Below are positions 25,275-54,435 of a stretch of 64,000 nucleotides of DNA, in pieces. The notes under the pieces were generated by a model that did not search any database, had not been told where the DNA came from, and worked only from the letters and a program-made list of their open reading frames with translations. This DNA comes from an uncultured Bacteroidales bacterium (lineage in GTDB: Bacteria > Bacteroidota > Bacteroidia > Bacteroidales > Paludibacteraceae): contig CALEPS010000188.1 in assembly GCA_937910305.1 (NCBI GenBank), positions 1,095 through 65,094 on the forward strand. Reading direction: 5' to 3'. Each line of letters starts with the position of its first letter. Position 1 is the first letter of the stretch. A program made the position numbers and the translations under genes.

Positions 25275-25535
25275 TTACTCGGCTGTGTCTCCATAGCCAT
25301 AGTCGGCAGGGTTAAACGGCTCGTCGATGGAGTGAGTTCTACAGTACTCCTGCTGTAATCCCTTGAGTGTTTCAACAGGTGGAACGGTCGGAAACACCAC
25401 CTCTCCTACCTTGCTCAATCCACTGCCCGGTATCGGCTCAAAGCCGAAACGGAATAATACACCAGACGGCAACACGGCTTTACGCGGCGCGTTGCTTGGT
25501 ACTACGTTTTGATTTACTACGGTATTCATATTCAT
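25275..25535 (-). CDS. hypothetical protein
   Basis: An 86-aa ORF. Its 5' end overlaps the RT gene 3' end by 56 nt. Confidence 0.3.
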   Translation of the reverse strand: MNMNTVVNQNVVPSNAPRKAVLPSGVLFRFGFEPIPGSGLSKVGEVVFPTVPPVETLKGLQQEYCRTHSIDEPFNPADYGYGDTAE

Positions 25536-38040: not shown

Positions 38041-41000
38041 TTATTCCTCCTCCGGGTTATGCAACGCATCACGCTCGTTCAGCAGACGGTTGAAACGCTC
38101 CACGGCTTTCTCCTCTGCTTTCTCGGTGCTCTCCTCACCACGCATCCACCATGTCAGCGGTGCGGTATGCACTTTCTGATAACGGATATAATCCGCCAAC
38201 GCAGCATCATACTTTCTCTCGTCAGCTACCACGCGGTCAATCAGTTGTTGCTCGTACTGGCTCTGAGGAATACTCAGTAAGGCCTGCGAGATACGCAATG
38301 CCTGTTCCGCCGCGCTCAGTTCCTCCTCGCTGTCAATGGTAGTTACTATGCGTTGGATTACGTCTCCTGCCGTCTGCGGGTCAAAGCCGGTGCCGGACTG
38401 CATAGCCACCGACAGGGCTTGGTTGGCAAACTCGGCATATTTGTCGTTATCAAGATACTTACCTACACGTTTCACATCCTGCGTAAAAGGCAACTCGGGA
38501 GCGAACATGTCTGCTACGCTGCCATTACCATCCAACGCGCTCTCTATTACTCCGCCGCCCATCAGGCCCGTGAACGGACTGAACCATGCGCCGCCGGAAG
38601 TAGTATCGTCTATCAACTGCTTCTTCTTGTCGTCATCGTCGCCTAAGAGCAGATACGGCACCTGACCAACCAGCCGCCATAATAGATTAAGGAGTGCGCC
38701 ATAGACCACGAATCCGGCTATGTCGGAGCGGATGGACTTATTATAGTCCTTCTCCGCTGCCTTGCGTGCCTGCTCGTCCTTCAGTCCGTCGTTCTTGTAC
38801 TGACCCATACGGAAGGCTATCTGCTCTTCCTTGCTTCCTTTGCCGAACTTACGCAGCAGGTTACGGGTGTGGAATATGAAGTTTCTGGTGTACTGAATAG
38901 GAGAAGTGCGGAATACTGTAAGCGCTGCAGTATAGACGTTTCTATCCATCTGCACAGGAGACATGAACGCTCCCTCACTCGACTGCTGGCTGGTGTTAAA
39001 CGCCTGCTCGGAATCCTGACGGGCACGCTGCTCCGCCTGCTCTTGTGGATAACCTTTCTTCAGATACTCCGCCAAGCGGCTGTCATAAACCGCCCTCGCA
39101 CCGGTGGCGCAAGTCAGCGTATCGAAATACACATTGGCGGCCATTCCATATTTCTGACTCCACTCCAGCACGCGCTTGTTCCATTGCCAGTCGGTCGTGC
39201 GCTGCATCAACCGCATATCGCCCATATCCCTCTTGCTGACACGTTTCTCGAAGTTAGGCAGGTTCTCTCTTGCCCACTTCATCGTGCCGTGAGGGGTCAT
39301 CCAGTTACGCAGATACGAACCTACAAACACACCATCGGTCATATACGTGAAGAACGCAGGGAAGGAAGCAATCTGCTTCAATGCCGTCCATATACGGAAG
39401 TTAATCTTCGCGCTCGTCACTCCCTTAGCTATATTCAGAGTAATCTCAGATGGCTGATCCGTCTTAGGCTTATACGTACCTATCGCTACGCGGAAAGCGT
39501 CCTTCATATAGTTATAGAGTTGGTCGCCACTACCATAGATAGTGCCGTTCATCCCCTTGATGCGGTTGCGGAAATTGATGTCCGAGAACAGGATATTAGC
39601 GTCCCGGTTCCATTGGGCAAACGCGTTCCAACGCTCCATCTGTGCGATATGACGGATAACCTCTTGGAAGAAATCAGCATTCCTTACATCCAACGGCAGG
39701 CTGTTCTTGGTACGACGTTTGATAGCGCCGGTGCTTGTGCCTGCCAACAGACGCGCTGCATCCGTATCGGGTTCGCTCAAATCCTCGTTCTGCTGACGCG
39801 CAGCGGCATTGATGCGCAGCGGGAAGTAGTTCTCTATCGCGTCCATCGGAGCACCAAACAACGCCTCATGCGTCGGATTATAGCGGTTACGCAGCTGCGA
39901 GAAGAACTCTCGCTGTACCCAGTCCACTACATCCAGTATCTCCTGACCGAACTGCTCACGCACCTTATCCGTCAATGCTTTCACATCGTCCTCGGTGATA
40001 TTCATGCCGGCTAACTTCATACGGCCGTCATTCATCTTGTTTACCGCATAGATATAGAGCGCATTGCCAGCACTCAGCGGGATATCCTCCATTACCGGCA
40101 TATCCTTACCGTCCACACCGTTGAGCATGGTCACGGTGAACATATTATGGCTGGCATCGTTAATCTTACGCGCTGCCTCTTCCCATGTCTTGTACTTGCC
40201 GTGTGTCAGTTCGGATATCTTCTCGTCCAGCGTCTTCGATGCCGCTACAATGCCGGTGTACTCTTGGTCGGCTGCGTCCATCCAACCGCGCATGAAGTGG
40301 TTATACAGATAACCCTCGCCGTCCGGGGCGTGCAGACCCGTCAGCCGCAGCAACGACTGCAGGTCGCGTATCGGGGAAGCAATAGCATCCCACATCTGAC
40401 GCGCTATAGCACCTCTGGTGCGGTTGCGGTTCGGATTGGTTGCCAGCCCCTCCAAGTCACGCTGTGCATAACTGCGTATCTTGTCGCGGTTAGCGCCCTG
40501 ACGGCGGATGAAGTCCTTGGCGCGAACTTCCTGAGTCGATACATACTCTTGCAGGTCACGGGTGGACTGCATGTAAGCATCGGCTTGGTCAAGATCGTTA
40601 TCACGCATGGCTTGTTTGATACTTTCTACAAGTTGCTTGCGTGCAGCAGGCTTAAGAGCCATATTGCCTTGCGCTTTCTTTAACTCCAAATCCAACTGCT
40701 TGCGCTCTTCCTGGATGTGCTGAATGCGCTCCAAATATTGAGCGGCTATCTCATAACCTATCCACTGACCTTTATACTGCAACTTCTGGCTCTCGTCCGT
40801 AGCATTATCCTCCATCTGCATCAGTTGGTCAATCAAACCATCTACCTCCTTATTCGGGTCGGTATGGTCGCCACGAAGCGTTAAGAGTGTTATGCCATTC
40901 TCCGGGTCGAGTACTTCATTGAGAGCTTTGAGGGCGTGCTGTCCTTCCAACGCCACCTTACCCTGCATTACTACGCCGCTGATGTTTATCTTGTCAATCG

Positions 41001-44000
41001 GTGTCTGACGCAGTTTGTCCCACTGACGCTGTGCGGCTTTGGCTTGGGCATCCACCATGTGGTCCATGATCGTATTCACCTCGGTGCTAATATCCTTCTT
41101 GCCTATCGCATGTACTATCTGCGTAGCGATACGGCGTGTCGTGTCCGGCATGTACTGTGCCCAAACGCCGTTCTCTTGGAGCAGCGTGTTGTAGAGGTTG
41201 AGAAGCGCATCGACCACCTTACGGTCATAGTCGGACTGCATCCGCATCGCCGCACGAATACCTTTGAGGTCGGCGGTCACTTTCTTGAGTGCGGACTGCA
41301 TGATGTTGTAGTTATTGTTCGCCTGCTGTACCAGCGCCTTGGTCACCGTCTCGCTCCGGCTCAATGTCGAAGGATTATTCACCGAGAAGCGGATGTCGTT
41401 ATTATCCTTACTGAACTCACCGCTATTGTTCGTCGCACTCTTGATTTGGTTCGGGGAGAATACCACGTACTCATTATATCCGTTACCCTTGCCTACTATC
41501 ACACCATCATTTCCGTTCTCTCGTAAAGCGTTGGTGAACTCTTGGCTACCAATCATTGTGCTGATTAAATAGTTGAGACTACCAGGGATTAGGAATGATT
41601 TGTCTGCAATAGCATCGTCTCTTACTTTGCGGCGTGCGGAGTCAGGACGATAGAAGGACGATATGCGTTCAATCTCTGCATCGTGCTTTCCTTCTTCCAT
41701 CTCGGCATTAACAGCATTGACAATATCATTATATTCGCCTACTGTTATATTCTTTCCGTTCTCGTTAAGGACAATCTTCCGCAAAGCCGGAGTATTGAAG
41801 TGCTCAACAATAAACGCTGATATGTCGTCCGGCATGTAGTCTTCCATCACAAACGGTTTACGCATGTTCAGATATACTTGCATGTGGCTCTTTCCGTAGA
41901 TGTCGGTATTGCCACGGTCTCCGAAATAGAACCCTGCACCAAATATGCCTCTATCTCCAGAGTTCTCTCCTAATCTATTTATATCAAACGTAGTAAACTC
42001 GTTAGGCGTGGAGTGTTCTACCACCAACGGCTTGCCATCTGCATCTACAACCTTGCTTGCGTGCTCGGGGTCGTTCTGCCAATCGCCGAACCATGCCTTG
42101 AACTTATCGGTAGTCGTTTGGTCGTCCTCGTTAGCGATACCATTTTTATCGTTCTCACCACCCGTCACGCTGAACCGGATATGGTCGCCGAGTTCCGTTC
42201 CATTGAGCATATCCCACAGTATGCGGTCGGCAACTTGCTTGGCGGAATCGAAATGCTTGATGCCGAACAGGTTCACACCTACCCAATGCCAGAAGTCCGC
42301 AAGGGCTTTCTTGGCGCGGTTGATGAGTTGGCGCACCTTGGCACCACGCAGCACAGAACCGGACTGCTCCGCCTCGTACTGCTCCTCTTTCGCCCACTCT
42401 TCCATACGTGCTGCACCGCGTTGTCCACTGTAGCGTGCCAGCGCCTCGGAACAGATAGCGTCGTCGGTAGTCAGTCCCTGGTAGTTCGGGTCGTTCACCA
42501 CCTCGTCCCAGAACGGCATGCCTTTGAAGATGTCCACGATAGACTGCCAGCCCTCGCGGTTGTTGCGCATCATCGCCTTTGCCCAGATATGGCTGTACTC
42601 ATGTATCGGTGAATTAGGGTTCAGTCCGTCCTTGGTCAGATAGATTCTGTCCCCTATCGCCCAACCATACAGCGTTCCATCGGGAGTGAGCATGGCTTCA
42701 CGGGTTCTGCCGGACGGAATGATATTACCGTTAGCGTCACGATAGATACGTCTGCCGTGGTATTGATCCTCAACAACCTTATCGGATGTATAGATAGCAT
42801 TATTGGTCATGTCCGGCACAAGTTTACCCTTATACTCGGAAATATCCGTTCCAATTGGTAATTGCGACAGCTCTGCACGTGTTTTGTCGGCTACCTCATA
42901 ATTACCTGCGGCAAGTTCCGCCTTACTGATAGAGCGAACCGGCACATACGAATTACCTTGCCACTCGCCCTCTGCCAATCCGAGGCGTTCCAATATCTGT
43001 CCGTTCTCTGCTGCGAAGCCGGGCAAATCAACACCCCAACGGGCATTGTTGCTCATGTGGTTGCTAAACCGAACCTTAACGGATGCGCCGTTGTTCTTAT
43101 TGGTATAGGTCACATAGACGCTTTCGGTGGTGCTTGCCTTGCTTACTCTTGCTTCTATCTGCGGATAGTCCGGGAACTGCCGCACTTCATACGGCATGTG
43201 CCATGTTCCATCACCTATTTGGAAACCATCACGGTCACGGCGTGTTTCTTTCTCCGAACCGTCTTCGGGCATTTGTTCATCGGTAGCGAGGAATACATCA
43301 AGGTCGGTATTGTCGTTCAGTACCTCAACGAGTGCGGCGGTAGCGAGTTGCTGCGCCTCGGTCTGGTTGGCAAACTGCGGATAGTCGAGGTTGGTGATCT
43401 GCGCCTCCGGCGTGGTCTCTTCCTCGTCGTCCTGCTCGTTGAGTGTCACGGCACGGCCGGAAGACATATTCGCGTACTTGGCTTCTTTCTCCGCCACACG
43501 GGCTATATACTGACTGCGGGTCTCGTTAGGCTTGGGAGCTATGGTATTATTCGGGAATCTGTTAGGGAAGATTTCACTTAAAGGTTGCTCCCACTTGCCT
43601 ACAAATCCTCTAATAATAGTATTTCCGTTAATGCCTATTTCTCCTGCTAAATCAGATAGTGTTTCGAAACCTTGTTCGAAATTCTTTTGTCCTATAGATG
43701 GAGCAAAATGAATTATACCATTTTTATATGCGCCTCTTTTTGAATATCCAATCCAACCTCTTGCAAAATCATCAAACGGCTCTTCTACACCCGATTTGGC
43801 CAGTTCTTCCGCATGTGACTCGTATTCAATGCTTGCTCTTTCTTTGCCTAAGACCAATGTGCCTGTTTTTGGATTATACATAAACCTTCTGTTATATATT
43901 GTGGAAAGGTCTATGTTTTCTTTGTTCAAGTTTATCGTTTGAACACCATCAATCGCATTAACAGTCGGCTTACGACCACTAATAGAGAACATCGGTTGCC

Positions 44001-47000
44001 CCTCCAGCACGCTTTCTCGCATCTCCGGCGTGATGTCGATAGCGTGCATGGTCTGATAACCGTCCTCCAACTGCGGCATCGTCACCTCGCCAACCTGCAC
44101 ACCCCATTTCTTGCCGTACTTCTGCATGAACCGTGGCAGTATGTCATCATAGAAGCCTTTCATACCGTCATAACCAACACGCAGACCATCGCCTTGGAAG
44201 GTCTCATCCACAGGCATCTCCTTTAGGCGTTTTGCTAAATCCTTGCCAAAGATGTCTGACATAGACTTGCCGTTATACTCACGATCATACTCGTCAGCAT
44301 ACATGCCGTTCTCGTCAAACTCCAGCGTCATCATTAGCCCGCTTGTCGGATAAACCTCGTAGGTGTTTTCGTCAGTCTTGACGATATGGTCAATCTCCTT
44401 GCCGATGTCGTAACGCTTGGCTTGTTGCTCGCCGGTAGTCCATGCTACTTTGTCGTAACCGTTCTCCGCAGCAAAGCGCAAAATACGCTTCATCGCCAAC
44501 TCATGCCAGTTTTTCTCAAACGGTGCAGCAGGAATAGCGCTTACGGGTATATTCTTCTTGAACTCTTCCCATCTGTCGTACAAATTCTCGTACTTTTCTT
44601 GTAACTCCGTATGCTTAGATTTCTCTTCGGGGGTTAAAACATCAAGCATTTCACCTCTCGTCCGTACTTGATTTTCGTACTTCTTCCATAACTGATCTCT
44701 ATAGTCATGGTACTCCAGTTGTGCCTTTGACGTTTCCTTTTCTAATTGACGATACTTGATAGCTGTCTCACTATCCACATACCCCCTCTCTCTACCCTCT
44801 TGATGCCGTTTGGACTGAATCTCGTCGATAACCAGCACATCCGCCAACTCCTCGCCGTTCTCGCCATACTTAATCTTATGAGCGTCTCCGAAACGAACCC
44901 AAGCAATAGCCTTTCCTGGTCCTGCATCGCCGAAGTGAATCTCATCATTCTCGTTCCATTCCTCAATATCAGGAACTATAAGAGCTATTTCACGCTTATT
45001 CTCCAAGCCCCAAGTGGTATAACGCAAGCGGGTCTCGTTGATGTTTCTCGGGCGACCTTCCGAATCAGCTTCCCATTGAGCATAGTCGCTGTCATTGTCG
45101 CGCATCAACTCATCGCCAACCGCATAATAGCCCATTGAGAAATCATCGCCGTATTCCTCAATCATTCTGTCCCATGCTACCTCGTTCGGATCTTCCTCGC
45201 CTGCCTCAACTGCCTCGTCATAGTACCGCTTGAACTCGTCCTTGCGTTCGAGGAATAAGGCATCTTCCTCATACTCCCCATATTCCTGTTCCTCAATCTG
45301 GATCTTGTGCTCACGGATATAATCAAGAATATCCTGCTTGGAGATAGTGAACTTCTTGCTTGCTTCGCCAAGGCGTACTACAAACTGACTGCGGGTCTCG
45401 TTGGGTTGCAACTCCACGGTCGGACGCTGCTGTGCCAACCAATCGCTCAGACCGATCCATTTGTCCTCACCGGCTTTCAGTCCGCCCGCTTTCTCTATCA
45501 TCGCACGCCATTGTTCCGGCGTAGCCTTCTCCTGCTTGATACCCTCCACCGCACGCTCTGCGTTGCTATAGAAGATGTCATTGTTCTGATTGCTGATAGA
45601 GAAACGGATGTCATCATTCTCCTCGCTGAACGAACCGTCATTGTCGGTAGCCGACTTGATTTGGTTGGGAGAGAAAGCAACGTACTCACCATTTAGATCA
45701 CCGTCAAAATATACTCCGTCATATCCATCGTCGATAAGTTGCTGCGTAAAACGTGCGCTTTCCTCTCTATCTTCCAACTCCGATAGTCGTTCCATATCTT
45801 CATTTGTAGCAAAATATGGCTCACGGATATTAAGGAATGTATTTAGAACACGACCTCCTTGTGCATAGCCTGCTGCGTAGTCATCATTCTTTGTGAAGAA
45901 ATAAAACCCTCTTCCAAGCCATCCGGCATCGTGTTGCTGTTGTCTATTCTCGTCAAAAATAGTAAACGAGTATGGAGTTCCATGCTTTGCCACCATCGGC
46001 TCGCCGTTCTCATCCAAGACCTTGCTGGCGTTCTCCGGGTCATTTTCCCAATCGCCGAACCAACGCTTGAACGAACGCAGACGTACTTGCAGCCATTGAC
46101 GCTCATTGAGGTTGGAACGCTTGCCGTTGGGGGCTTTCATAAACGTACCATCAGCCAATGCTGCGTCCTTTATCTGCTGCATCTCCTCACGTGCCGCCTT
46201 GGTCAGCGTGCGGTCAGTATCAAGCCCACCGCTTACGGAGAAGCGTATGCCCTCGTCATCGGTGGCTTGTAGTGTAGCTGCACGACGCGCACCCTCTTCT
46301 TTCGGGTCGTACTCGAACAGCGTCAGACCGGCTTTCTCCAGTCCGTCACGCAACTCCGTCGGCAGATCGTTCGGCACAACGGCATTACGGAACTCATCCA
46401 AATACACCGGACGACGGAACTTCGTCTCGAAATAACGGCTCGGTAAGTTGGCAATACGATCTTTCATTTCTGCGATGCGTCCTGCCCACTCATTGTCTGC
46501 CTGTATCTGATAACGATACTCGCGGTTGAGGTACGCTATCGGGTCGGCTTTCATCATCGCCTCCTGAATACGCATCAACGCATTATCCACGGCGATAAAC
46601 GGATTATCGTCCAGACCGTAAGCGTGTCCGTCCTTTTGTGTATAGTCACGGAAATCAATACCGAGGCTCGTCCAATCGTGTCCTACCTCCTCGTATGCCG
46701 TCTTGATCTTCTCTTCTTCGGGTTCAAGGATGTCCTTATGCTTGCGGATTTGGTTCAGCGTACGGAACTTAGGCATCAGCATAGATTTGGTCTCACTTAC
46801 TCCTGCACCTTCACGCCAGTTGGTGTCGCCCTCTTTATTCATCAGGCGGCTTGCATTCTCAATCGTGTTAGGAAGATAGCGGCGGTCGCCATCTCTCGTC
46901 CATCCTGCAAAGATAACCTCGTTATAGCCGAGTTTGTCTATTTCTTTCTGCAGCCACGCCTCGAATGCCGGACGCATACCCTCGGTGTCGATGATAGTCT

Positions 47001-50000
47001 GCGCTTTCTCAATCGTTCTGCCGTAGTTCTCTTTGCCGGCATCACGACCGTCCTGCATGATACGATAGAGTGCGGAATCATAGGCCGCGAATGACCAATG
47101 CTCTCCCCATCTGTCTTCCATGTAGTTAGCCGCACCGTCCTTACCCTCGGAGCGCATACGAGCCACCATCTCCTTGCGTTTGTCAATCTTCTCTTGGTCG
47201 CCGTACTGCTCCAGCCACAAGTTGAACTCTGCCAACTGCTCACCCTCTAACTTCTCGTAGGCATCATACGACGAACTGTCATAGAAGCCCGGATATTCCA
47301 TACCGAGACGTTTGTAGATGTCCTCTATAGATATATTAGGATAACGGCGCGGCGTTAACTCAATCGGCAGTTCACGTCCTTGCTGTGCCAGATAGACATA
47401 CTCCAGACCACTATAGTTGCGGTTCTTATCCATATAGTCACGGACGTTGTTCTGAATAGCAAAAGCCAAGTCCTCCGGAAGACCCTTTGTGAGTTCGTCT
47501 AATCTCTTTGCCGTCTCTTTACCCGCACGATACTCTACGTTCGGGTACATCGGAGTATAAGCGTCACCGGCATAGGTTCCGGCATTACGCCCTGACTCGC
47601 TATCCACCAGCGACGAAGGCATCACTAACGATACCTCACCATAGCCGTGGTGGTTCTGACGCGCCAAATCAATAACCGCAGCAGACGGATTAGCCAAGCC
47701 GCCCATCTTCAATGCCTTGCGCAGCTTCTCTGCGCTGATGTTATGCAGACCGACCAGCGTGTTCTTACCTACCGGAATAGTCTGCGTGCCACTAACCGAC
47801 AGACGCAGATCATCGGGACTCTTGTAGTAATGGATAGCGCCGGCATCGCTCTTGTCGGCTTTGGCTGCTTTGAGTGCGGCGCGGTTGGCATCCAGATCGG
47901 TGCTCACACTGACACCCATATCCTCCAAGCGATCCACCAACGCGCCACCTATCTCAGTGTCGGCGGCTTCAAATTTAGTAGAACTTACTTCTCCGGCTGC
48001 GGGAACTCCATCCCCTCTGCCTTCAGTTCGTCGTAGGCTTTGTTGATCAGTGTCAAACCCTTCTCGTCCCAATCCTCCTTCGGATTGCGTTCCTGAATCT
48101 GCGCTGCTCTCTCTGCTACTACTTTCGGCACTGTGATTGTCAGGTGCATTTCGCCTTGCCATAGCGAAAGCTTCGATACCTCGTTGTTCATTATTAATGG
48201 ATTTTATTATGTCAATTAACTCGTCTTTAACACCAAATGCACGCAAGGCTGATTCCAATTCGGCATCATCTTTAGCCTTGTAAGCCTCTTCCATCGCAAA
48301 GGATATGAACTCATCGGCTACAATAGAATGTTTCTGCTTGTTATAGAATGGGGAGTTGCTAAATTTCTCTAATAAAGACTTCAACTCACTCTCCGGAGCC
48401 ACATCCTCGACCTCTTTAACGCGCTTAATATCCTTTCGTGTTAAGTCATGTTGACGCTCGTGAACATACTTTGTTCTTGCACGCTCTGCATCCGGAAGAT
48501 TATCTATATCAAGGCACACATATCCGTTAAGATAGAAGCCTTCTATATGTCCTCCGTTCACTACGAGGCTTTGTGCCTCTGCGATAGCATCTGGTGTCGC
48601 GCCTATATTCCTTAATGTCTCTACAAGCGTAGAGTTATCAAACAAGATAGGCTTGTGCTCCTCGTCGGCAATGCCGTTCAGATAATCCGTTAACTGTTCG
48701 CGTTGGGTTGGTCGAACTTCTCCCAGTCCTCGTTCTTGTCCGACTCCAGAGCTTCCTTGATTCTCGCCTGCAATTCCGGCGTTATCTCCAGCTCCTCCGG
48801 CTTCTTCTCCAGATACTCCCTCAGAGCCGACTTCGGATAACCCGGCTCCTTCAGTACTGCCTCGATTCTCGCCTCCAGTTCGTCCTCCCAATCCGCCGCG
48901 TCCAGTAGTTCCAGCCCCCGTTTGCTCCAATACTCCGGGTTCCTTCCCCTGATCTCGCCCATTTTGCGGGCTATGTCCCTGCGAATCTGTACGGACATCC
49001 GCAGGTCGTCTTGCGTTACCGAGACGCTCACTTTGTCCCAGTCGTTCATCGTTTTCTCGTTGTTCATTATTGATAGATTTTATAATGTTAATCAACTCGT
49101 CATTAGCACCTGCTGCCCTCAATATGCTCTCTAATTCCTCATCACTTTCTACAGCATAAGCCTCTTCCATACTGTAAGAAATAAACTCATCGGCCAATAC
49201 ATCATGACTTTCATTACTATAAGCACCTCCAGATTGTGATAATACTTCTACTAACACATCCAACTCTTCTCTGCTCGCAGCACGCATCACGCGCTCTATT
49301 TGCTCTTTAGTCGTGAGTAGATGCTGACGCTCATGTATGTATTTCGAACGCGCTTTTTCGGTAGTATCAAGTCCATCAGTATTAAGGTATAATTTATTCT
49401 TGATAGTAAAGCCATCAAAGGTCTTTCCGTTCGCGAGTTGATTTCGTACGTACTCTATCTTTCGAGGACTTGTACCAAGTTGGATTAACAAATCAATAAA
49501 GTTATCGTTCCCGTACAGTTCAAACGGATGTGCCTCGTCGGCTATCGTATTCAAATAATCGGTCAACTCCTTGCGGTGTTTCTCCCGACGGGCTTCATCT
49601 ACGGACTTGTAGTCAATGCCGAATATCTGCTTGATGGCTTCTTTATGAGGAATAGCCGGGGTGTCACCAAATAAACTGCCTGTCGTTCCCTGTACCGCAT
49701 CATAGTACGCATTCAGCGCCTTGGCAATCTCTGTCTGCTTGCCGTATTTGAACAGCGTAGCTAATTCGAGCGCAAAGTTACTAAATTTTTCTGAAGGTAC
49801 AAAATTTTCGGCATCAAAATCGCTCGGAAATTGCATTTGTAGTGCCCAAGAGCGCATTGCTGCCCTTATTTCCTGTTCGTTTCGACCGTTTTTAACCTCT
49901 GCCGACTGATGTAACGCACGATATAACGCACCTATCGCTTCCTGAATGTCAGGTACCAATCGGCTTTCTTCCGGCGACTGCAGGTCGCGCACTATCGTTT

Positions 50001-53000
50001 GCAGTATCGCTTTCTGGGCCGTGACGGGAATATCGTCGAACATAATAGGCAGGTTGTCACTCTCTGCGTTTTGGAACAGTACCTGTTTGAGCACTCCCTG
50101 CAATGCCGCTTTCGCTTCGGCGGTCAGATTACCACGGCTGTCAAAAGCAGACTGCATCTGCGCATCGCTGATGATACCTAACTTCTGAAGAAACTCTAAC
50201 GCCGGTCTGCCGTTGCGTAAGGTCAAGTCCGCCAAAGTAGCTTCATCATCCTCGCTCCGCAATAGAATCTCCGAGAAACGCTGAATCCTGTCGCCTAACT
50301 GATTAGCCGTCACCTGCGGGTCAATCAGCTGCACACCTCCTGTCTCCAAGTCGGTCGCTTTCTTCTGCCATAACTGAATAGCCTGCTCGTCTGTCACGTT
50401 ATCCAACATGCGGACATCAATCACATCGTTATTGCGGATAGTCTCTATATCGGTTTCAGTATATCCCAAAGCCTCAGCATTGTCAATCAGATACTGCTTG
50501 TATTTGGCTACGCTCTCCGGGTGCGACTGGTACATCTTGATCAGCGCATCGAGACGGTTGTTACCCTGCACGGCTTCGCCGCGTCCATTCAGCACCGGAG
50601 CACCTACATACGCCGTGGCACCCTCTACAATCTCGTCGGGGTGTATATTCTGCGCCATCATGTCGGATGTCACTTTGCTTACTTGGTCGCGACGGTCTTT
50701 AGGCTGTGCCTCGCTGATGAAGAATGCCGGATTACGCTGACCGTTGATATGGCTTGGCTGTGCCATGCTTACAGGTATCAGCACATGGTGCGCCTCCGCT
50801 GCTCCGTTCTGCCCTTTGGCAAACTGTACCGTCACGGCCTTACCTGTTGCCAGCGGTTGCAATGGCTCTTGGCGGTGGATCACCCGACCGTTCACCACAT
50901 GGAAACCTCTGTTGCGGGCATCACGGTCGTTATCCTCACTGAAATCAGGTACACCTTTCTTCAACTCCCTGTCAATACGTTCCTGCTCCAACCGTGCGGC
51001 TTCCGCTGCTGCTGCCTGCTCTCTGGCTATGCGGGCGGCTTCCTCTGCCGCTCTGCGCTCTGCCTCCGCTTGGGCTCGCTGCTCACGCTCGGCAATAGTC
51101 AGATAACTCTTGGCTTTTTCTCTCGCCTCCGTCAGTTTGTCCAAACGGTCTTGCAACGCCTTCTTTTCTCGGTCAATGAGTTCTTGCTGCGCATTGAAAT
51201 CGGCTATGCCGTTATAGCGCGTCACTTTCTTGCGCTCGGCGGCTTTCAGCTGGCTTTGTGTGTTGGCTATTTCTGCTTCAAGGAATTTATCCACTCTCTC
51301 TCTGCTCCCCATGAACTCAACCGCTGCTCCGGCGTAGTCTGCCGCAGTCATTTTGTCAAGGACCGGTTCTACCGGCGCAGCGGGCTGCGCAGCTTGCGAT
51401 TGTTGGGGCGCTTGCTGGTGGCCGTCCTGCTGTTGGGTTTCTGTAGGTGCTGCCGGTTGTTGCTTTCCTTCAATAAGCGCATACCCCTGCTCCGCCATCT
51501 GCTCCGGGGTGACTATATTGGTCATGCCCTGCGCATCTTGATACGAATAGGTGCCGTCGCCGTTATCGGTAGCAGTTATCTCCTCCGTATCGTTCACGAA
51601 AATCGCCGTTCCCTCCGGCAACTGCTCTTGCACTCGCTCCACGGCGGCTTGCTCGGCGGCTGCCTGATCCATGCGGTTGGCTACCTCCGTCCGGATAAAC
51701 GTGTCCGGCGTGCCGGGCGTGGCAGTCAGGTTCAGATCCTTGGCGTTCTCCTGTGTCACCGTGCCGTCCGACCACTTGACCGTTACCACATCGTTATTGG
51801 TGATACGTCCTTTCTCGTTTATCGCGGGACTGACCGTACCAACCACGAATCCTTGCCGCTCGGCATCGCCAGCCATCTGAACGGGATAGACATTACCGTC
51901 ATCGTGCGTCCGCTCTCCGTAGTACTGCGTCACCTCTGCCGTCATCCTCTGCTCCGGTGTCATCTCCTCCGCCTGCTGGGGACCCGAACCGCCACCTTCT
52001 TCTATTGCCCGCCTATCGGTTCTTTCGTTATTTCGCGGCATATATTCGTTCAAACGATTCAGATAGCTCTCAAAGATAGTTTTATCCTTGGCACTCAATC
52101 GGCTGTACTCTCGACTCAACAGCTTCGACAAATCATCTATAGAAACACCTTGCTCGCGCGCTACTTGCTCGCGCACACCTTTCAATATATCACTTCCCTT
52201 TATGTCCTCTGCCAGATATTTCTCCATCTGACTGCGGATAGCACGCTCTATAGGTGTCAGACTACCCTCGTCCGCACTCAATACACGATACGCATCTTCA
52301 CGCGATAACTGCGGGTAGTTCTCTATCGTCTTGGCTATTGCTCCGTCGGTAACCTCCTGCATCTTCTCTGCAAAACCTCGGGTGCGGATGATGCCCTCTA
52401 CCCACTCTAACATATTGTTACGCGTAGCACCGTACTGACGAACACGATAAGCCTCCGCCGCCTTTTGCGTATCGAACTTACGAGTCTCATAAACCATGCC
52501 GCCGTTATCATAGGTCTTCACTACATAACCGTCAGCACCGGATTCTATATCACCCACGTAGATAGGACTCACATGAGCATCAACCTTGCCATACAGCAAC
52601 GATGCTAACTTATACTTGGCTTGCGTGTCTATACGCTCGTCTGCGGAGATGTCGTTCAATACCCTGTAATACTCTTCCAACGAACCAAACTCCTTGCCTC
52701 CGTTCAGGCTCTTCAGTATCGTATAAGCATCCTTTCCTTCTATTCCAGCGGCATTAAACTGCTCAATCTCTTCTCTCGTCAAGGTATGCGCCATCGGATC
52801 CTGACGCATCGCCTCCCATGCTTTGCGCAGTCCTCCGGCCTTACTTGCGGTCTTCAATCCGCCTTGGATGTCAAAGAACAACTGCATAGCCGCAGCATTA
52901 GCATACTCGTTACCCCAATCGACATCGTTTAACGAACCGCCTTGCAGAATATGACTCGCCACTCCGCTACCTACCATAATATTGGTTCCTGAGGCGAAGT

Positions 53001-54435
53001 GCGTTGCACGGCCGGCTACTAATCCCAAATCACGACCGAAAGCGTCTCCTACAGCTTTCTGTACCCTCTCTCCGAGTGCTCCGCCACCTGCAAAGGCCAT
53101 ACCGGTTAGTGCGCCACGTATCGGAGCCGTTGCAAGATTAGACCAATTAACCTCGCCTGTTTGATACAATTCTCCAATTAACGTGTGACCCGTATCTATA
53201 CCAGCCATCATTACACCACCACTCGTCAACCGCTGAGCGGTACGCAGTAAACCGCGCTGCATCGCAGCACGTTCCGCCGCTCCGGCAGCATCACTCAAAC
53301 CGACGCTTGCTAAACGGCGACCGGCAGCATTAACAATACCACGACCTGCCGCTTCTCCCACTCCCGGCATTATCCACATCAGCGGATCGGCTACTACATT
53401 GGCTACTTCCGCACCTATAGCAACTCCTTTTGTTGCCCAACCGGGATTCGCTTGCTCGTATTGCTGCGTTCCCTGCATCGCATACTGACGGCTCTGTGGA
53501 GACTGTGTATAGAGAGACGCTAACTGCGCAATCAAATTGCCTTGGATGAACTTCCGCGCAAAATAATCCAATTTGTCTTGCGGGATATTCTGACCTACAA
53601 AACGCTCTGCTATCTTGTCTTCTACAAAACGCTTGTATAACTGATACTCATCGATAGTCGCACCCATCTCTTGGGCAAGTTGAGCATCACCCTTTACATC
53701 TTTGCTCTGATATTTATTGTCTAACTCTCTCTCGAATGCATCAACGATAGCCTCTGGGCTATTCTGCTTGTTGGCTTCGCGGCTTGCTATAAGCGAATAA
53801 CCTATATTACCGAAACCGCCGCCCATTACAGAAGGTAGGTTCACTTGCTGTGGTTTGTTACGCTGAACGCTCTCCGCTGCCGCTTTGGCACGCTCGTTGG
53901 CTTTATTCCATACCTCATTCAGCACCGGCGCATCTTGCTTCCATTGTGCTTCAAACTGCTCTTTGTACGGAGCCAGCATACTCTCCCATTCTGCTTGAGC
54001 GCGTGCCGCATCTTGCGCTGCCGCCTCTTGTTGTTGCTGACGGCTCCTGCCTTGTATGTCTGTCGTGGCACTGATATGATATGGATTATGTGCTCCTATG
54101 CTCTGCCAGAAACTCGGTCTCTGCTCCACCAACGGATGATTCGGGTCACTGGTTACTCCTTGGATTGCGTTCTGACGCGCTAACTCTTCCTGCTCGCTCA
54201 ATAACGAACCGCCGGACACGCCTGCTTGCTGTGCCGGTTGTCCGTCAGAGGTCATAGCCAAAGCGAACTGCTCCGGCGTGCCTATATTGAGACCCAATTG
54301 TCCAGCTTGCTCATATACCCACTGACGATTCTTCTCGTCCTGCATCGCAGCGGCAAAATCATCTTCACTACCGAGATTGACGCGTTTGCCCGTCATCTCC
54401 TTATATAACCAACTTTGATTATCAGTTAGTGCCAT
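38041..54435 (-). CDS. giant (5,464 aa) multidomain polyvalent-type virion protein
   Basis: A single uninterrupted 16,395-nt ORF. It contains three HExxH motifs, two homologous H-Y-E ART-like domains, a possible ParB-like segment (VQGNNRLDALIKMY), glycine-rich hydrophobic N-terminal segments and a long helical C-terminal third. Confidence 0.85.
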   Translation of the reverse strand: MALTDNQSWLYKEMTGKRVNLGSEDDFAAAMQDEKNRQWVYEQAGQLGLNIGTPEQFALAMTSDGQPAQQAGVSGGSLLSEQEELARQNAIQGVTSDPNHPLVEQRPSFWQSIGAHNPYHISATTDIQGRSRQQQQEAAAQDAARAQAEWESMLAPYKEQFEAQWKQDAPVLNEVWNKANERAKAAAESVQRNKPQQVNLPSVMGGGFGNIGYSLIASREANKQNSPEAIVDAFERELDNKYQSKDVKGDAQLAQEMGATIDEYQLYKRFVEDKIAERFVGQNIPQDKLDYFARKFIQGNLIAQLASLYTQSPQSRQYAMQGTQQYEQANPGWATKGVAIGAEVANVVADPLMWIMPGVGEAAGRGIVNAAGRRLASVGLSDAAGAAERAAMQRGLLRTAQRLTSGGVMMAGIDTGHTLIGELYQTGEVNWSNLATAPIRGALTGMAFAGGGALGERVQKAVGDAFGRDLGLVAGRATHFASGTNIMVGSGVASHILQGGSLNDVDWGNEYANAAAMQLFFDIQGGLKTASKAGGLRKAWEAMRQDPMAHTLTREEIEQFNAAGIEGKDAYTILKSLNGGKEFGSLEEYYRVLNDISADERIDTQAKYKLASLLYGKVDAHVSPIYVGDIESGADGYVVKTYDNGGMVYETRKFDTQKAAEAYRVRQYGATRNNMLEWVEGIIRTRGFAEKMQEVTDGAIAKTIENYPQLSREDAYRVLSADEGSLTPIERAIRSQMEKYLAEDIKGSDILKGVREQVAREQGVSIDDLSKLLSREYSRLSAKDKTIFESYLNRLNEYMPRNNERTDRRAIEEGGGSGPQQAEEMTPEQRMTAEVTQYYGERTHDDGNVYPVQMAGDAERQGFVVGTVSPAINEKGRITNNDVVTVKWSDGTVTQENAKDLNLTATPGTPDTFIRTEVANRMDQAAAEQAAVERVQEQLPEGTAIFVNDTEEITATDNGDGTYSYQDAQGMTNIVTPEQMAEQGYALIEGKQQPAAPTETQQQDGHQQAPQQSQAAQPAAPVEPVLDKMTAADYAGAAVEFMGSRERVDKFLEAEIANTQSQLKAAERKKVTRYNGIADFNAQQELIDREKKALQDRLDKLTEAREKAKSYLTIAEREQRAQAEAERRAAEEAARIAREQAAAAEAARLEQERIDRELKKGVPDFSEDNDRDARNRGFHVVNGRVIHRQEPLQPLATGKAVTVQFAKGQNGAAEAHHVLIPVSMAQPSHINGQRNPAFFISEAQPKDRRDQVSKVTSDMMAQNIHPDEIVEGATAYVGAPVLNGRGEAVQGNNRLDALIKMYQSHPESVAKYKQYLIDNAEALGYTETDIETIRNNDVIDVRMLDNVTDEQAIQLWQKKATDLETGGVQLIDPQVTANQLGDRIQRFSEILLRSEDDEATLADLTLRNGRPALEFLQKLGIISDAQMQSAFDSRGNLTAEAKAALQGVLKQVLFQNAESDNLPIMFDDIPVTAQKAILQTIVRDLQSPEESRLVPDIQEAIGALYRALHQSAEVKNGRNEQEIRAAMRSWALQMQFPSDFDAENFVPSEKFSNFALELATLFKYGKQTEIAKALNAYYDAVQGTTGSLFGDTPAIPHKEAIKQIFGIDYKSVDEARREKHRKELTDYLNTIADEAHPFELYGNDNFIDLLIQLGTSPRKIEYVRNQLANGKTFDGFTIKNKLYLNTDGLDTTEKARSKYIHERQHLLTTKEQIERVMRAASREELDVLVEVLSQSGGAYSNESHDVLADEFISYSMEEAYAVESDEELESILRAAGANDELINIIKSINNEQRENDERLGQSERLGNARRPADVRTDSQGHSPQNGRDQGKEPGVLEQTGAGTTGRGGLGGRTGGENRGSTEGAGLSEVGSEGVSGEEAGGAGDNAGIAGENQGSSGVGQERGLGEVRPTQREQLTDYLNGIADEEHKPILFDNSTLVETLRNIGATPDAIAEAQSLVVNGGHIEGFYLNGYVCLDIDNLPDAERARTKYVHERQHDLTRKDIKRVKEVEDVAPESELKSLLEKFSNSPFYNKQKHSIVADEFISFAMEEAYKAKDDAELESALRAFGVKDELIDIIKSINNEQRGIEAFAMARRNAPDNHSAESSSRESSADSGTQSEGGLGREGFDTDQQSLRRTEGRGDGVPAAGEVSSTKFEAADTEIGGALVDRLEDMGVSVSTDLDANRAALKAAKADKSDAGAIHYYKSPDDLRLSVSGTQTIPVGKNTLVGLHNISAEKLRKALKMGGLANPSAAVIDLARQNHHGYGEVSLVMPSSLVDSESGRNAGTYAGDAYTPMYPNVEYRAGKETAKRLDELTKGLPEDLAFAIQNNVRDYMDKNRNYSGLEYVYLAQQGRELPIELTPRRYPNISIEDIYKRLGMEYPGFYDSSSYDAYEKLEGEQLAEFNLWLEQYGDQEKIDKRKEMVARMRSEGKDGAANYMEDRWGEHWSFAAYDSALYRIMQDGRDAGKENYGRTIEKAQTIIDTEGMRPAFEAWLQKEIDKLGYNEVIFAGWTRDGDRRYLPNTIENASRLMNKEGDTNWREGAGVSETKSMLMPKFRTLNQIRKHKDILEPEEEKIKTAYEEVGHDWTSLGIDFRDYTQKDGHAYGLDDNPFIAVDNALMRIQEAMMKADPIAYLNREYRYQIQADNEWAGRIAEMKDRIANLPSRYFETKFRRPVYLDEFRNAVVPNDLPTELRDGLEKAGLTLFEYDPKEEGARRAATLQATDDEGIRFSVSGGLDTDRTLTKAAREEMQQIKDAALADGTFMKAPNGKRSNLNERQWLQVRLRSFKRWFGDWENDPENASKVLDENGEPMVAKHGTPYSFTIFDENRQQQHDAGWLGRGFYFFTKNDDYAAGYAQGGRVLNTFLNIREPYFATNEDMERLSELEDREESARFTQQLIDDGYDGVYFDGDLNGEYVAFSPNQIKSATDNDGSFSEENDDIRFSISNQNNDIFYSNAERAVEGIKQEKATPEQWRAMIEKAGGLKAGEDKWIGLSDWLAQQRPTVELQPNETRSQFVVRLGEASKKFTISKQDILDYIREHKIQIEEQEYGEYEEDALFLERKDEFKRYYDEAVEAGEEDPNEVAWDRMIEEYGDDFSMGYYAVGDELMRDNDSDYAQWEADSEGRPRNINETRLRYTTWGLENKREIALIVPDIEEWNENDEIHFGDAGPGKAIAWVRFGDAHKIKYGENGEELADVLVIDEIQSKRHQEGRERGYVDSETAIKYRQLEKETSKAQLEYHDYRDQLWKKYENQVRTRGEMLDVLTPEEKSKHTELQEKYENLYDRWEEFKKNIPVSAIPAAPFEKNWHELAMKRILRFAAENGYDKVAWTTGEQQAKRYDIGKEIDHIVKTDENTYEVYPTSGLMMTLEFDENGMYADEYDREYNGKSMSDIFGKDLAKRLKEMPVDETFQGDGLRVGYDGMKGFYDDILPRFMQKYGKKWGVQVGEVTMPQLEDGYQTMHAIDITPEMRESVLEGQPMFSISGRKPTVNAIDGVQTINLNKENIDLSTIYNRRFMYNPKTGTLVLGKERASIEYESHAEELAKSGVEEPFDDFARGWIGYSKRGAYKNGIIHFAPSIGQKNFEQGFETLSDLAGEIGINGNTIIRGFVGKWEQPLSEIFPNRFPNNTIAPKPNETRSQYIARVAEKEAKYANMSSGRAVTLNEQDDEEETTPEAQITNLDYPQFANQTEAQQLATAALVEVLNDNTDLDVFLATDEQMPEDGSEKETRRDRDGFQIGDGTWHMPYEVRQFPDYPQIEARVSKASTTESVYVTYTNKNNGASVKVRFSNHMSNNARWGVDLPGFAAENGQILERLGLAEGEWQGNSYVPVRSISKAELAAGNYEVADKTRAELSQLPIGTDISEYKGKLVPDMTNNAIYTSDKVVEDQYHGRRIYRDANGNIIPSGRTREAMLTPDGTLYGWAIGDRIYLTKDGLNPNSPIHEYSHIWAKAMMRNNREGWQSIVDIFKGMPFWDEVVNDPNYQGLTTDDAICSEALARYSGQRGAARMEEWAKEEQYEAEQSGSVLRGAKVRQLINRAKKALADFWHWVGVNLFGIKHFDSAKQVADRILWDMLNGTELGDHIRFSVTGGENDKNGIANEDDQTTTDKFKAWFGDWQNDPEHASKVVDADGKPLVVEHSTPNEFTTFDINRLGENSGDRGIFGAGFYFGDRGNTDIYGKSHMQVYLNMRKPFVMEDYMPDDISAFIVEHFNTPALRKIVLNENGKNITVGEYNDIVNAVNAEMEEGKHDAEIERISSFYRPDSARRKVRDDAIADKSFLIPGSLNYLISTMIGSQEFTNALRENGNDGVIVGKGNGYNEYVVFSPNQIKSATNNSGEFSKDNNDIRFSVNNPSTLSRSETVTKALVQQANNNYNIMQSALKKVTADLKGIRAAMRMQSDYDRKVVDALLNLYNTLLQENGVWAQYMPDTTRRIATQIVHAIGKKDISTEVNTIMDHMVDAQAKAAQRQWDKLRQTPIDKINISGVVMQGKVALEGQHALKALNEVLDPENGITLLTLRGDHTDPNKEVDGLIDQLMQMEDNATDESQKLQYKGQWIGYEIAAQYLERIQHIQEERKQLDLELKKAQGNMALKPAARKQLVESIKQAMRDNDLDQADAYMQSTRDLQEYVSTQEVRAKDFIRRQGANRDKIRSYAQRDLEGLATNPNRNRTRGAIARQMWDAIASPIRDLQSLLRLTGLHAPDGEGYLYNHFMRGWMDAADQEYTGIVAASKTLDEKISELTHGKYKTWEEAARKINDASHNMFTVTMLNGVDGKDMPVMEDIPLSAGNALYIYAVNKMNDGRMKLAGMNITEDDVKALTDKVREQFGQEILDVVDWVQREFFSQLRNRYNPTHEALFGAPMDAIENYFPLRINAAARQQNEDLSEPDTDAARLLAGTSTGAIKRRTKNSLPLDVRNADFFQEVIRHIAQMERWNAFAQWNRDANILFSDINFRNRIKGMNGTIYGSGDQLYNYMKDAFRVAIGTYKPKTDQPSEITLNIAKGVTSAKINFRIWTALKQIASFPAFFTYMTDGVFVGSYLRNWMTPHGTMKWARENLPNFEKRVSKRDMGDMRLMQRTTDWQWNKRVLEWSQKYGMAANVYFDTLTCATGARAVYDSRLAEYLKKGYPQEQAEQRARQDSEQAFNTSQQSSEGAFMSPVQMDRNVYTAALTVFRTSPIQYTRNFIFHTRNLLRKFGKGSKEEQIAFRMGQYKNDGLKDEQARKAAEKDYNKSIRSDIAGFVVYGALLNLLWRLVGQVPYLLLGDDDDKKKQLIDDTTSGGAWFSPFTGLMGGGVIESALDGNGSVADMFAPELPFTQDVKRVGKYLDNDKYAEFANQALSVAMQSGTGFDPQTAGDVIQRIVTTIDSEEELSAAEQALRISQALLSIPQSQYEQQLIDRVVADERKYDAALADYIRYQKVHTAPLTWWMRGEESTEKAEEKAVERFNRLLNERDALHNPEEE
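41381..42183 (-). other. ART-like domain 2 of the giant protein
   Basis: FKAWFGDWQNDPEHASKVVDADGKPLVVEHSTPNEFTTFD...GAGFYFGDRG...GYNEYVVFSPNQIKSATNNSGEFSKDNNDIRFSV. It is homologous to domain 1. Confidence 0.5.
42589..42603 (-). other. third HExxH motif (HEYSH) of the giant protein
   Basis: NSPIHEYSHIWAKAMM, read from the reverse complement of ATGGCTGTACTCATG. Confidence 0.6.
45598..46251 (-). other. ART-like domain 1 of the giant protein
   Basis: FKRWFGDWENDPENASKVLDENGEPMVAKHGTPYSFTIFD...GRGFYFFTKND...NGEYVAFSPNQIKSATDNDGSFSEENDDIRFSI. Confidence 0.5.
47985..48191 (-). CDS. nested +1-frame ORF 2 (68 aa, MNNE..., RHH-like pattern) inside the giant gene
   Basis: (54435-48191) mod 3 = 1. 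It is a paralog of the 48690..49067 ORF. A TAA lies 5 codons upstream in its frame. Sequence: MNNEVSKLSLWQGEMHLTITVPKVVAERAAQIQERNPKEDWDEKGLTLINKAYDELKAEG. Confidence 0.4.
   Translation of the reverse strand: MNNEVSKLSLWQGEMHLTITVPKVVAERAAQIQERNPKEDWDEKGLTLINKAYDELKAEGMEFPQPEK
48190..48693 (-). other. HExxH module, tandem copy 2 (main frame of the giant gene)
   Basis: LTDYLNGIADEEH...KYVHERQHDLT...ADEFISFAMEEAY...DELIDIIKSINN. HERQH is at 48448-48462. Confidence 0.7.
48690..49067 (-). CDS. nested +1-frame ORF 1 (125 aa, MNNE..., RHH-like pattern) inside the giant gene
   Basis: (54435-49067) mod 3 = 1. A TAA lies 5 codons upstream in its frame. It exactly fills the linker between HExxH module 1 and module 2. 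Sequence: MNNEKTMNDWDKVSVSVTQDDLRMSVQIRRDIARKMGEIRGRNPEYWSKRGLELLDAADWE... Confidence 0.45.
   Translation of the reverse strand: MNNEKTMNDWDKVSVSVTQDDLRMSVQIRRDIARKMGEIRGRNPEYWSKRGLELLDAADWEDELEARIEAVLKEPGYPKSALREYLEKKPEELEITPELQARIKEALESDKNEDWEKFDQPNANS
49066..49566 (-). other. HExxH module, tandem copy 1 (main frame of the giant gene)
   Basis: LTDYLNTIADEAH...KYIHERQHLLT...ADEFISYSMEEAY...DELINIIKSINN. HERQH is at 49321-49335. The copy-to-copy period is 876 nt. Confidence 0.7.

Follow-up and report, generated by a model that had tools for sequence, protein, structure and literature searches.

What does a giant phage-type gene encode in its linkers when a second open reading frame runs through them on the same strand? 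This question is raised by a stretch of 64,000 nucleotides of contig CALEPS010000188.1 (hereafter, the window), in which a polyvalent-protein gene contains two copies of a module with an HExxH motif, each followed by a linker of low complexity. Two open reading frames (ORFs), ORF1 and ORF2, overlap these linkers in the +1 frame of the giant gene, whose own frame is termed the main frame here; their starts are at gene offsets 5368 and 6244, both of which equal 1 modulo 3. Each ORF has its own start and stop codons and lies on the same strand wholly inside the giant gene, directly 3' of one HExxH module, and the coordinates, lengths, and frame given for both in the initial annotation of the window were recomputed and found correct. 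As a whole, the locus is best explained, with good probability, by an arrangement in which each HExxH module is followed by a complete small gene of an undescribed family that is nested in the +1 frame.

Substitution pattern in the overlapping region

The module is rare, and relatives are scarce. Protein searches yielded only L001 and L002, which encode P0001 and P0002 (ORF1 type), and L003, which encodes P0003 (L and P numbers denote loci and proteins from other assemblies). A degenerate DNA pattern for IIKxINNEQR recovered L012, a 60.6-kb contig of IMG/VR, and L015, a 78.7-kb contig with an ORF of 3319 codons, was reached through a profile of the small proteins; both are mosaic relatives of the giant gene of the window. 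No matches were obtained among the INPHARED phages by tblastn or blastn, and a search with the pattern KY[VI]HERQH returned two loci, both of which are unrelated. Searches for the module with a single sequence and with an alignment in viral, metagenome, and genome collections found none among approximately 600 pattern matches, a result that missed L012 and is not evidence of absence.

Nucleotide alignments for a test of codon phase were built without reference to either frame, and ratios of nonsynonymous to synonymous substitution rates (dN/dS) were calculated by the Nei-Gojobori method. In the modules, the differences from homologues are mostly at codon position 3 of the main frame (e.g., 49/35/109 at positions 1, 2, and 3), and position 3 dominates as normal in all segments of the giant gene outside the overlaps that align to L012 and L015. 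Past the ATG of the small ORFs, the differences peak at position 1 of the main frame, which is position 3 of the +1 frame, and are lowest at position 3 of the main frame. The counts in the overlap by main-frame position are 28/20/14, 26/17/8, 38/22/17, and 46/21/17, which is the pattern (position 3 > 1 > 2) that coding in the +1 frame produces. For this phase switch, chi-square tests over eight pairs give p values of 7.5e-7 to 0.06, with 7.5e-7 for ORF1 against L002 and 2e-5 to 0.05 for ORF2 against L003, L012, and L015.

The dN/dS values in the overlap are 0.15 to 0.22 in the +1 frame and 1.3 to 2.2 in the main frame (0.20 versus 2.2 for ORF1 against L002, and 0.15 to 0.22 versus 1.3 to 1.5 for ORF2 against L003, L012, and L015). 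Amino acid identity over the overlap is 44 to 76% in the +1 frame and 30 to 56% in the main frame, and the upper values of both ranges are those of ORF1 and L002. Synonymous sites of the modules are saturated between the lineages (proportion of synonymous differences, 0.75 to 0.96); therefore, the lineages are old. The +1 ORF is intact in all copies, i.e., the two of the window and those of L001, L002, L003, L012, L015, L026/27, and L028, and in L016 the small domain is in frame with the module. Neither a +1-frame stop nor a frame-breaking indel was observed in any copy found, and it is the main frame that is interrupted in L003, by a stop inside an intact +1 ORF of 70 amino acids. Openness of the +1 frame in homologues and dN/dS in both frames are two of the checks that the initial annotation had proposed, and both came out as expected for coding ORFs.

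Judged from these substitutions, purifying selection acts on the +1 frame. Over the overlap, the main frame is unconstrained and merely stop-free; it is a disordered spacer, rich in G, E, R, and S over both ORFs as its translation confirms, that carries the ribosome to the downstream domains. The dN/dS above 1 in the linker is an artifact and not positive selection.

The two copies in the window were also compared with each other. Since the nucleotide sequences of ORF1 and ORF2 (differences, 38/47/39) are too diverged for a phase signal, a protein-level test was used. Local alignment of the two ORF proteins scores 78 versus 29 ± 5.5 for shuffled sequences (z = 8.9, 0 of 2000 shuffles), whereas alignment of the two main-frame linkers scores 41 versus 40.9 ± 6.7 (z = 0.02), in agreement with the first impression that the +1 frame is the better conserved of the two.

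The openness of the +1 frame by itself is weak evidence and only modestly unusual. When the main-frame codons were shuffled and the +1 frame was checked for stops, it stayed open in 0.35% (ORF1), 3.3% (ORF2), 5.5% (L012), and 1.4% (L003) of cases. Part of this openness is expected, because the coding strand of the linkers is poor in T (13 to 14% across both linkers versus 20.7% for the whole giant gene). An unrelated open stretch of 147 codons exists elsewhere in the gene, in frame +2. Chance ORFs from a purine-rich composition were considered and rejected; composition explains part of the openness, but neither the phase-specific substitutions nor the family membership described below.

Small-protein family

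A profile of ORF1, ORF2, P0001, and P0002 (A3), searched against 1.84 billion representative proteins (E ≤ 1e-3), retrieves 57 proteins. The members are mostly 52 to 87 amino acids in length, and many of them begin with MNNE, MNND, MSNE, or MSKE, the peptides that ..NEQR yields when translated in the +1 frame. The domain comprises approximately 55 residues with the consensus LxQGxxHxxxxxxKxxADKMxEIxxRxPxxxWxxRxxDLLxxAxxEL (alignment A4), also written LxQG...EIRxRNPxxW...DLLxxAxxEL. With a family hidden Markov model (HMM) from which window-type sequences were left out, ORF2 scores 76.7 bits and ORF1 scores 67.8 bits, and the main-frame linkers obtain no score; in a six-frame translation of the whole window, the family HMM matches ORF1 and ORF2 only. 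By BLASTP, identity to the free-standing members P0060, P0018, and P0063 is 32 to 45% over approximately 50 residues, with 45% between ORF1 and P0060. By these comparisons, ORF1 and ORF2 belong to an undescribed family of small proteins. Another match, P0004 (E = 1.8e-25), was discarded as spurious; it is a retroelement-like protein that hit 'AVLKEPGYPKSALREYLEK', and its 10 repeats inflate the score.

Free-standing genes of the family, which encode 58 to 68 amino acids and are not overlapped by any long ORF, were found for P0018 (L017), P0060 (L021), and P0063 (L023 to L025), with conjugative elements among their settings. The gene for P0018 adjoins a ParA-like gene. That for P0060 (positions 8001-8207 of L021, a 102-kb contig) is flanked by conjugation genes and by genes for PARG, DUF1810, and ADP-ribosylglycohydrolase, and that for P0063 (positions 5001-5189 of L023; also in L024 and L025) is between the DUF1810 and PARG genes. 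In P0029, P0043, P0047, and P0058, the domain is located at the N terminus of a larger protein, and P0052 is the only protein in which the HERQH module and the domain are fused in frame. Because free-standing and in-frame homologues exist, the +1 frame is, on this comparison, the ancestral one, and the linker of the giant gene is the out-of-frame read-through of the small gene. The polarity initially assumed, with the ORFs overprinted on the linkers, is the reverse of this. The view of the ORFs as real, paralogous, embedded coding sequences, offered in the same annotation, is supported by their conservation, dN/dS, and family membership.

Eight further members (P0005, encoded at positions 1741-2775 of L029, and P0006, P0011, P0013, P0016, P0017, P0026, and P0057) are membrane proteins that carry two to four tandem in-frame copies of the domain. 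These membrane-anchored tandem-repeat proteins are a different deployment of the family that is unrelated to polyvalent genes. As a separate observation, free-standing members are located near genes for PARG_cat_microb, DUF1810, and ADP-ribosylglycohydrolase, and the giant protein has two ART-PolyVal domains; a link between the small family and ADP-ribosylation is possible.

Predicted structure of the small domain

The AlphaFold2 model of the ORF2 domain (monomer, calculated with an alignment of four sequences) has a predicted local distance difference test score (pLDDT) of 81 and takes the shape of a β-hairpin (residues 5-12 and 15-22) followed by two helices. A resemblance to ribbon-helix-helix (RHH) antitoxins or repressors had been suggested for the small proteins on first inspection. 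They share with RHH proteins (CopG/Arc/MetJ) the size and the order of a strand and two helices, whereas the predicted small domain has two strands arranged as a hairpin. No Pfam match was found for the ORFs (E ≤ 0.01) or their relatives (E ≤ 1), and a profile search of the PDB with A4 returned 0 matches at E ≤ 1. The best Foldseek match in the PDB has an E value of 0.64, and none of the matches is an RHH protein. PHROG and NCBIfam also contain no match to the small domain. A resemblance to RHH proteins thus lacks support.

Start codons and probable expression of the nested genes

Both ORFs open with ATG AAC AAC GAG, which is created by the main-frame peptide ..INNEQR, as first described. The ATG is kept in 10 of 10 copies, while the main-frame codon varies among AAT, GAT, and TAT (Asn, Asp, and Tyr); since the main-frame residue varies and the ATG stays, the constraint is on the ATG and not on the main-frame residue. 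An A at position -3 is likewise present in all 10 copies. A conserved Gln is residue 12 from the ATG in nested (ORF2, L003, and P0008) as well as free-standing (P0018, P0060, and P0063) members.

As the initial annotation also pointed out, a +1-frame TAA is located five codons 5' of each ATG, and the leader is AT-rich. The A+T content upstream (-20 to -1) is 85% for both ATGs, which are tied for first place among the 371 internal ATGs. By least structure (-30 to +30), the ATG of ORF1 ranks third and that of ORF2 sixth among the same 371, and the latter is second in upstream A content. A Shine-Dalgarno (SD)-like motif is found in only 5 of the 29 genes of the window, and this scarcity is taken to fit a Bacteroidota-type host. 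In Bacteroidota, initiation depends on low structure and an A at -3 (PMC6847099).

These features make it fairly likely that internal initiation at the conserved AUG yields the small proteins as separate products. Initiation would follow the SD-independent, A/U-rich, low-structure route that is typical of Bacteroidota, and the module would provide the leader through its I/N/K-rich end (..LINIIKSIN). Tryptic peptides predicted for the +1 frame are VVAERAAQIQER, GLTLINK, and AYDELK for ORF2 and MSVQIR and GLELLDAADWEDELEAR for ORF1.

HExxH modules and organization of the cassette

The features of the locus are listed in Table 1. Module 2 shares 48% identity with module 1 and 64% identity with P0003, and both modules of the window close with ..DELI[ND]IIKSINNEQR. 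The HExxH motif, HERQH, is invariant in modules 1 and 2, P0003, L012, L015, L016, L026, and L028. No match to the modules was found by sequence in Pfam, including MPTase-PolyVal, PHROG, or NCBIfam, or by sequence-profile search of the PDB. The AlphaFold2 model of module 2 (pLDDT 76) is weak around the motif and has no Foldseek match; in the search for a zincin fold, Foldseek returned nothing significant, and IrrE/PprI appeared only at rank 43 with an E value of 4.

Table 1. Positions of the nested ORFs, the modules, and the surrounding parts of the giant gene in the window
Feature	Position	Strand	Description
Giant polyvalent-protein gene	38041..54435	-	5464 aa; its frame is the main frame
HExxH module 1	49057..49569	-	Main frame; ELTDYLN...YIHERQH...ADEFISYSMEEAY...DELINIIKSINNEQR; from translation and alignment with module 2, P0003, and L002
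ORF1 leader	49068..49097	-	AT-rich, gattaacattataaaatctatcaata; main frame ..LINIIKSIN
ORF1	48690..49067 (49067->48690)	-	Nested, +1 frame, 125 aa; family domain at residues ~7-66, then a 59-residue tail
Main-frame linker 1	48697..49056	-	ENDERLGQ...GEVRPTQRE; low-complexity reading of ORF1 in its -1 frame
HExxH module 2	48181..48696	-	Main frame; QLTDYLN...YVHERQH...ADEFISFAMEEAY...DELIDIIKSINNEQR
ORF2 leader	48192..48221	-	AT-rich
ORF2	47985..48191 (48191->47985)	-	Nested, +1 frame, 68 aa; essentially a single family domain
Main-frame linker 2	47959..48180	-	GIEAFAMARR...GEVSSTKFEAAD; ends at the conserved TEIGGALVD junction

ORF1 ends where module 2 opens, as had been noticed; its stop, the TAA at 48692-48690, is made by the TTA-ACG codons (Leu-Thr) that begin module 2. 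The tail of ORF1 has a faint likeness to one half of a further family domain (LEITPELQARIKEALESDKNEDWEK); it was tested as a second, partial family repeat and rejected at only 2.0 bits, which is not significant. The module and its nested ORF occur once in L012 and L015 (ORF2 type) and in L001 (ORF1 type), and twice in the window, in tandem and diverged. The copies have their junctions in common, GEVRPTQREQLT.. upstream and ..TEIGGALVD downstream. The module and the nested small gene thus behave as one cassette.

Three relations of the frames are observed among the loci. The small ORF is nested in the window, L001 to L003, L012, and L015. In L016, a contig of 1338 nucleotides from Logan (SRR12177865), the HERQH module and the small domain share one frame at positions 590-1210 (P0052, with the junction SINDEQK-MIEVYLEQEG), and the polyvalent parts up- and downstream are in another; the linker-like frame is still open across the small domain. 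In L026 and L028, both at approximately 2x coverage, the body of the module lags by one frame behind its C-terminal helix, the linker, and the downstream domains. L026 has an extra G at approximately 1100-1160, and L028 has a run of five A's in 'ggaaaaataataat' at approximately 1715-1740, with the small ORF and its ATG intact; the offset may be erroneous, or these loci may really be divided into three genes. None of the three states disrupts the small ORF.

Alternative explanations

Programmed +1 frameshifting near ..AAT-GAA-CAA-CGA.., which would give truncated isoforms that end with the module and the small domain, was the other source of the +1 frame raised at the outset, and we regard it as improbable. 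Its best support is P0052 of L016, in which module and domain form one covalent protein with the geometry of a frameshift product, a feature that also counts against nested genes; in addition, the small domain is always directly 3' of the module. However, the 10 aligned junctions contain no slippery or stall motif, stop, known hungry codon, or prfB-like CUU-UGA with an upstream SD, and the sequence 3' of NEQR is not conserved between copies. The +1-frame stops 2 to 5 codons before the ATG (at -2 in L002, L012, and L015) would confine a shift to a very small window. Frameshifting would not require an ATG, yet the ATG is kept despite the Asn/Asp/Tyr variation. Moreover, the N termini are collinear with those of free-standing members, and the ATG and the ORF persist in L026 and L028, where the module body is in another frame relation.

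The low dN/dS of the +1 frame (0.15 to 0.22) across lineages with saturated synonymous sites in the modules indicates long coexistence under selection, and this speaks against a decaying relic, i.e., a domain that was knocked out of frame on cassette fusion, is unexpressed, and is open only through the T-poor region. Although the low T content of the coding strand leaves few alternative-frame stops, ORF2 stays open in 3.3% of codon shuffles, and the frame relations of cassettes are labile (L016, L026, and L028), such a relic is very improbable given that no copy has a +1-frame stop or indel, that the ATG and the A at -3 are conserved, and that both diverged cassettes of one gene have kept the ORF. 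Least credible of all is an artifact of assembly or sequencing, by which the domain would truly be in frame and the giant ORF would not be continuous here. The same arrangement of frames is found at two sites of the window and in assemblies made independently by different projects (L001, L002, L003, L012, and L015), and the main frame is open for 5464 codons with recognizable domains on both sides; what favors an artifact is that the relatives on the contigs of approximately 2x coverage (L026 and L028) show single-base frame differences near the end of the module.

Other points weigh against nested genes, which we nevertheless prefer. The sample comprises approximately six to eight independent embedded copies, several of them on short or low-coverage metagenome contigs. 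The tail of ORF1 (48690..48870, residues ~67-125) is almost without comparative support, as L001 shows 98% identity and L002 either shows no difference or stops at that point. The module matches no peptidase family. Internal initiation within an actively translated ORF may be inefficient, and the Bacteroidota host is itself inferred.

Possible function

Because of the strict adjacency and the one in-frame fusion (Rosetta-stone logic), the small protein may act together with its neighboring HExxH module, as a partner that binds or regulates it, a tentative assignment to which we give somewhat less than an even chance. It may be, for instance, an inhibitor or an adaptor, and the role in immunity or regulation that the initial annotation proposed is likewise conjectural. 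Some family members are located far from any HExxH module, which leaves this role on a weak footing. Nesting would keep the module and the small gene together when cassettes shuffle between polyvalent genes, and the producing cell could make the small protein without depending on the giant protein that is delivered.

A bolder proposal, which we consider unlikely although worth stating, is that giant polyvalent genes grow by "swallowing" small genes out of frame: the alternative frame would be recruited as a disordered linker that welds effector cassettes, and the small gene would still be expressed from its own AUG as a partner that is present in the producer cell only, e.g., an inhibitor or chaperone of the HExxH module. 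If so, dual-coding linkers would be a general and overlooked design principle of polyvalent proteins, and the process would be seen at different moments in the split (L028-like), in-frame (L016), and nested (window) states.

Comparison with known systems

The nested small genes are a variant of the nesting known from Rz and Rz1. In phage lambda, the whole of the Rz1 gene is read in the +1 frame within Rz, at a place where Rz is mutationally silent (PMC5295617). Both systems consist of a small phage gene, complete with start and stop codons, that is read in the +1 frame of the larger gene around it; the part of the host gene concerned tolerates mutation, and no segment serves two constrained proteins. 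The Rz and Rz1 products are functional partners, whereas for the pair of the window a partnership is only inferred. In contrast to Rz, the host gene of the window is a polyvalent gene of 5464 codons with the nesting present twice in tandem cassettes. Here the nested gene, which has homologues both free-standing and in frame, is the older of the two, and what the host frame encodes over it is a linker without structure. The nested product is a predicted soluble β-hairpin/helix domain and not a lipoprotein.

The giant gene, which is very large, encodes multiple domains including PolyVal-type domains, and is located in a prophage, is a polyvalent protein gene as defined by Iyer et al. (2017, PMC5512222); HExxH modules recur in proteins of that class. 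It is a typical polyvalent gene; its HExxH module differs in that it matches neither MPTase-PolyVal of Pfam nor any other model. The founding paper (PMC5512222) does not use the words "overlap" or "linker," and its sole use of "reading frame" is unrelated. A literature search found no description of such a nested-gene arrangement in polyvalent genes.

For genes remodeled out of frame, the alternative-frame regions are reported to be short and disordered (Watson et al. 2021, PMC8788219). Compared with such genes and with overprinting (reviewed in PMC8227390), the disordered linker of the giant ORF is similar in that it comes from the alternative frame of a preexisting ORF, and it differs in that the original frame is intact and under selection inside the new gene (dual coding) and has not been replaced. 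Tails produced by programmed frameshifting, such as that of lambda G/GT (PMC5009743), are likewise C-terminal readings of a phage gene in a second frame. Unlike these, the junctions of the window are without a shift motif, the alternative frame includes a conserved AUG, and its similarity to free-standing proteins begins at residue 1.

Standard annotation lists a single giant gene at this locus and overlooks two conserved ones. The nested gene recurs in related giant genes of other metagenomes. Polyvalent genes may thus hide a layer of small proteins, and behind a "low-complexity linker" there can be a real gene that is read in another frame. This origin of linkers bears on how disordered regions and dN/dS scans are interpreted and on models for the assembly of giant multidomain genes. 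The analysis also defines a new family of domains in mobile elements. Its members stand alone, recur as repeats in membrane proteins, are fused to the module, or are nested, and the family offers a concrete pair with an uncharacterized HExxH module, to which it is physically linked.

Giant gene, prophage setting, and other open stretches

By Pfam, the giant gene encodes ddrB-ParB, PBECR5, and two ART-PolyVal stretches. A P22-like portal gene is located at 21349..23388, and the giant gene is in a prophage with host-like genes adjoining.

Further stretches of the giant gene are open in alternative frames, i.e., 42158..42598 (frame +2, 147 codons) and, in frame +1, approximately 46940..47246 (102 codons) and approximately 45845..46136 (97 codons). 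Where the alignments to L012 and L015 cover them, their substitutions follow the main frame, and the family HMM has no match to them. Opposite the giant gene, an antisense ORF of 595 amino acids with a GTG start extends over 50521..52308 on the plus strand and is unusually long for a GC content of 48%; the sense frame opposite to it shows position-3-dominant substitutions (82/65/263 against L015).

Near the portal gene, a prophage protein of 483 amino acids (25480..26931, minus strand) scores 28.4 bits with RVT_1, for which the Pfam threshold is 29.6. From this similarity, it could be a reverse transcriptase of the diversity-generating retroelement type or another phage reverse transcriptase.

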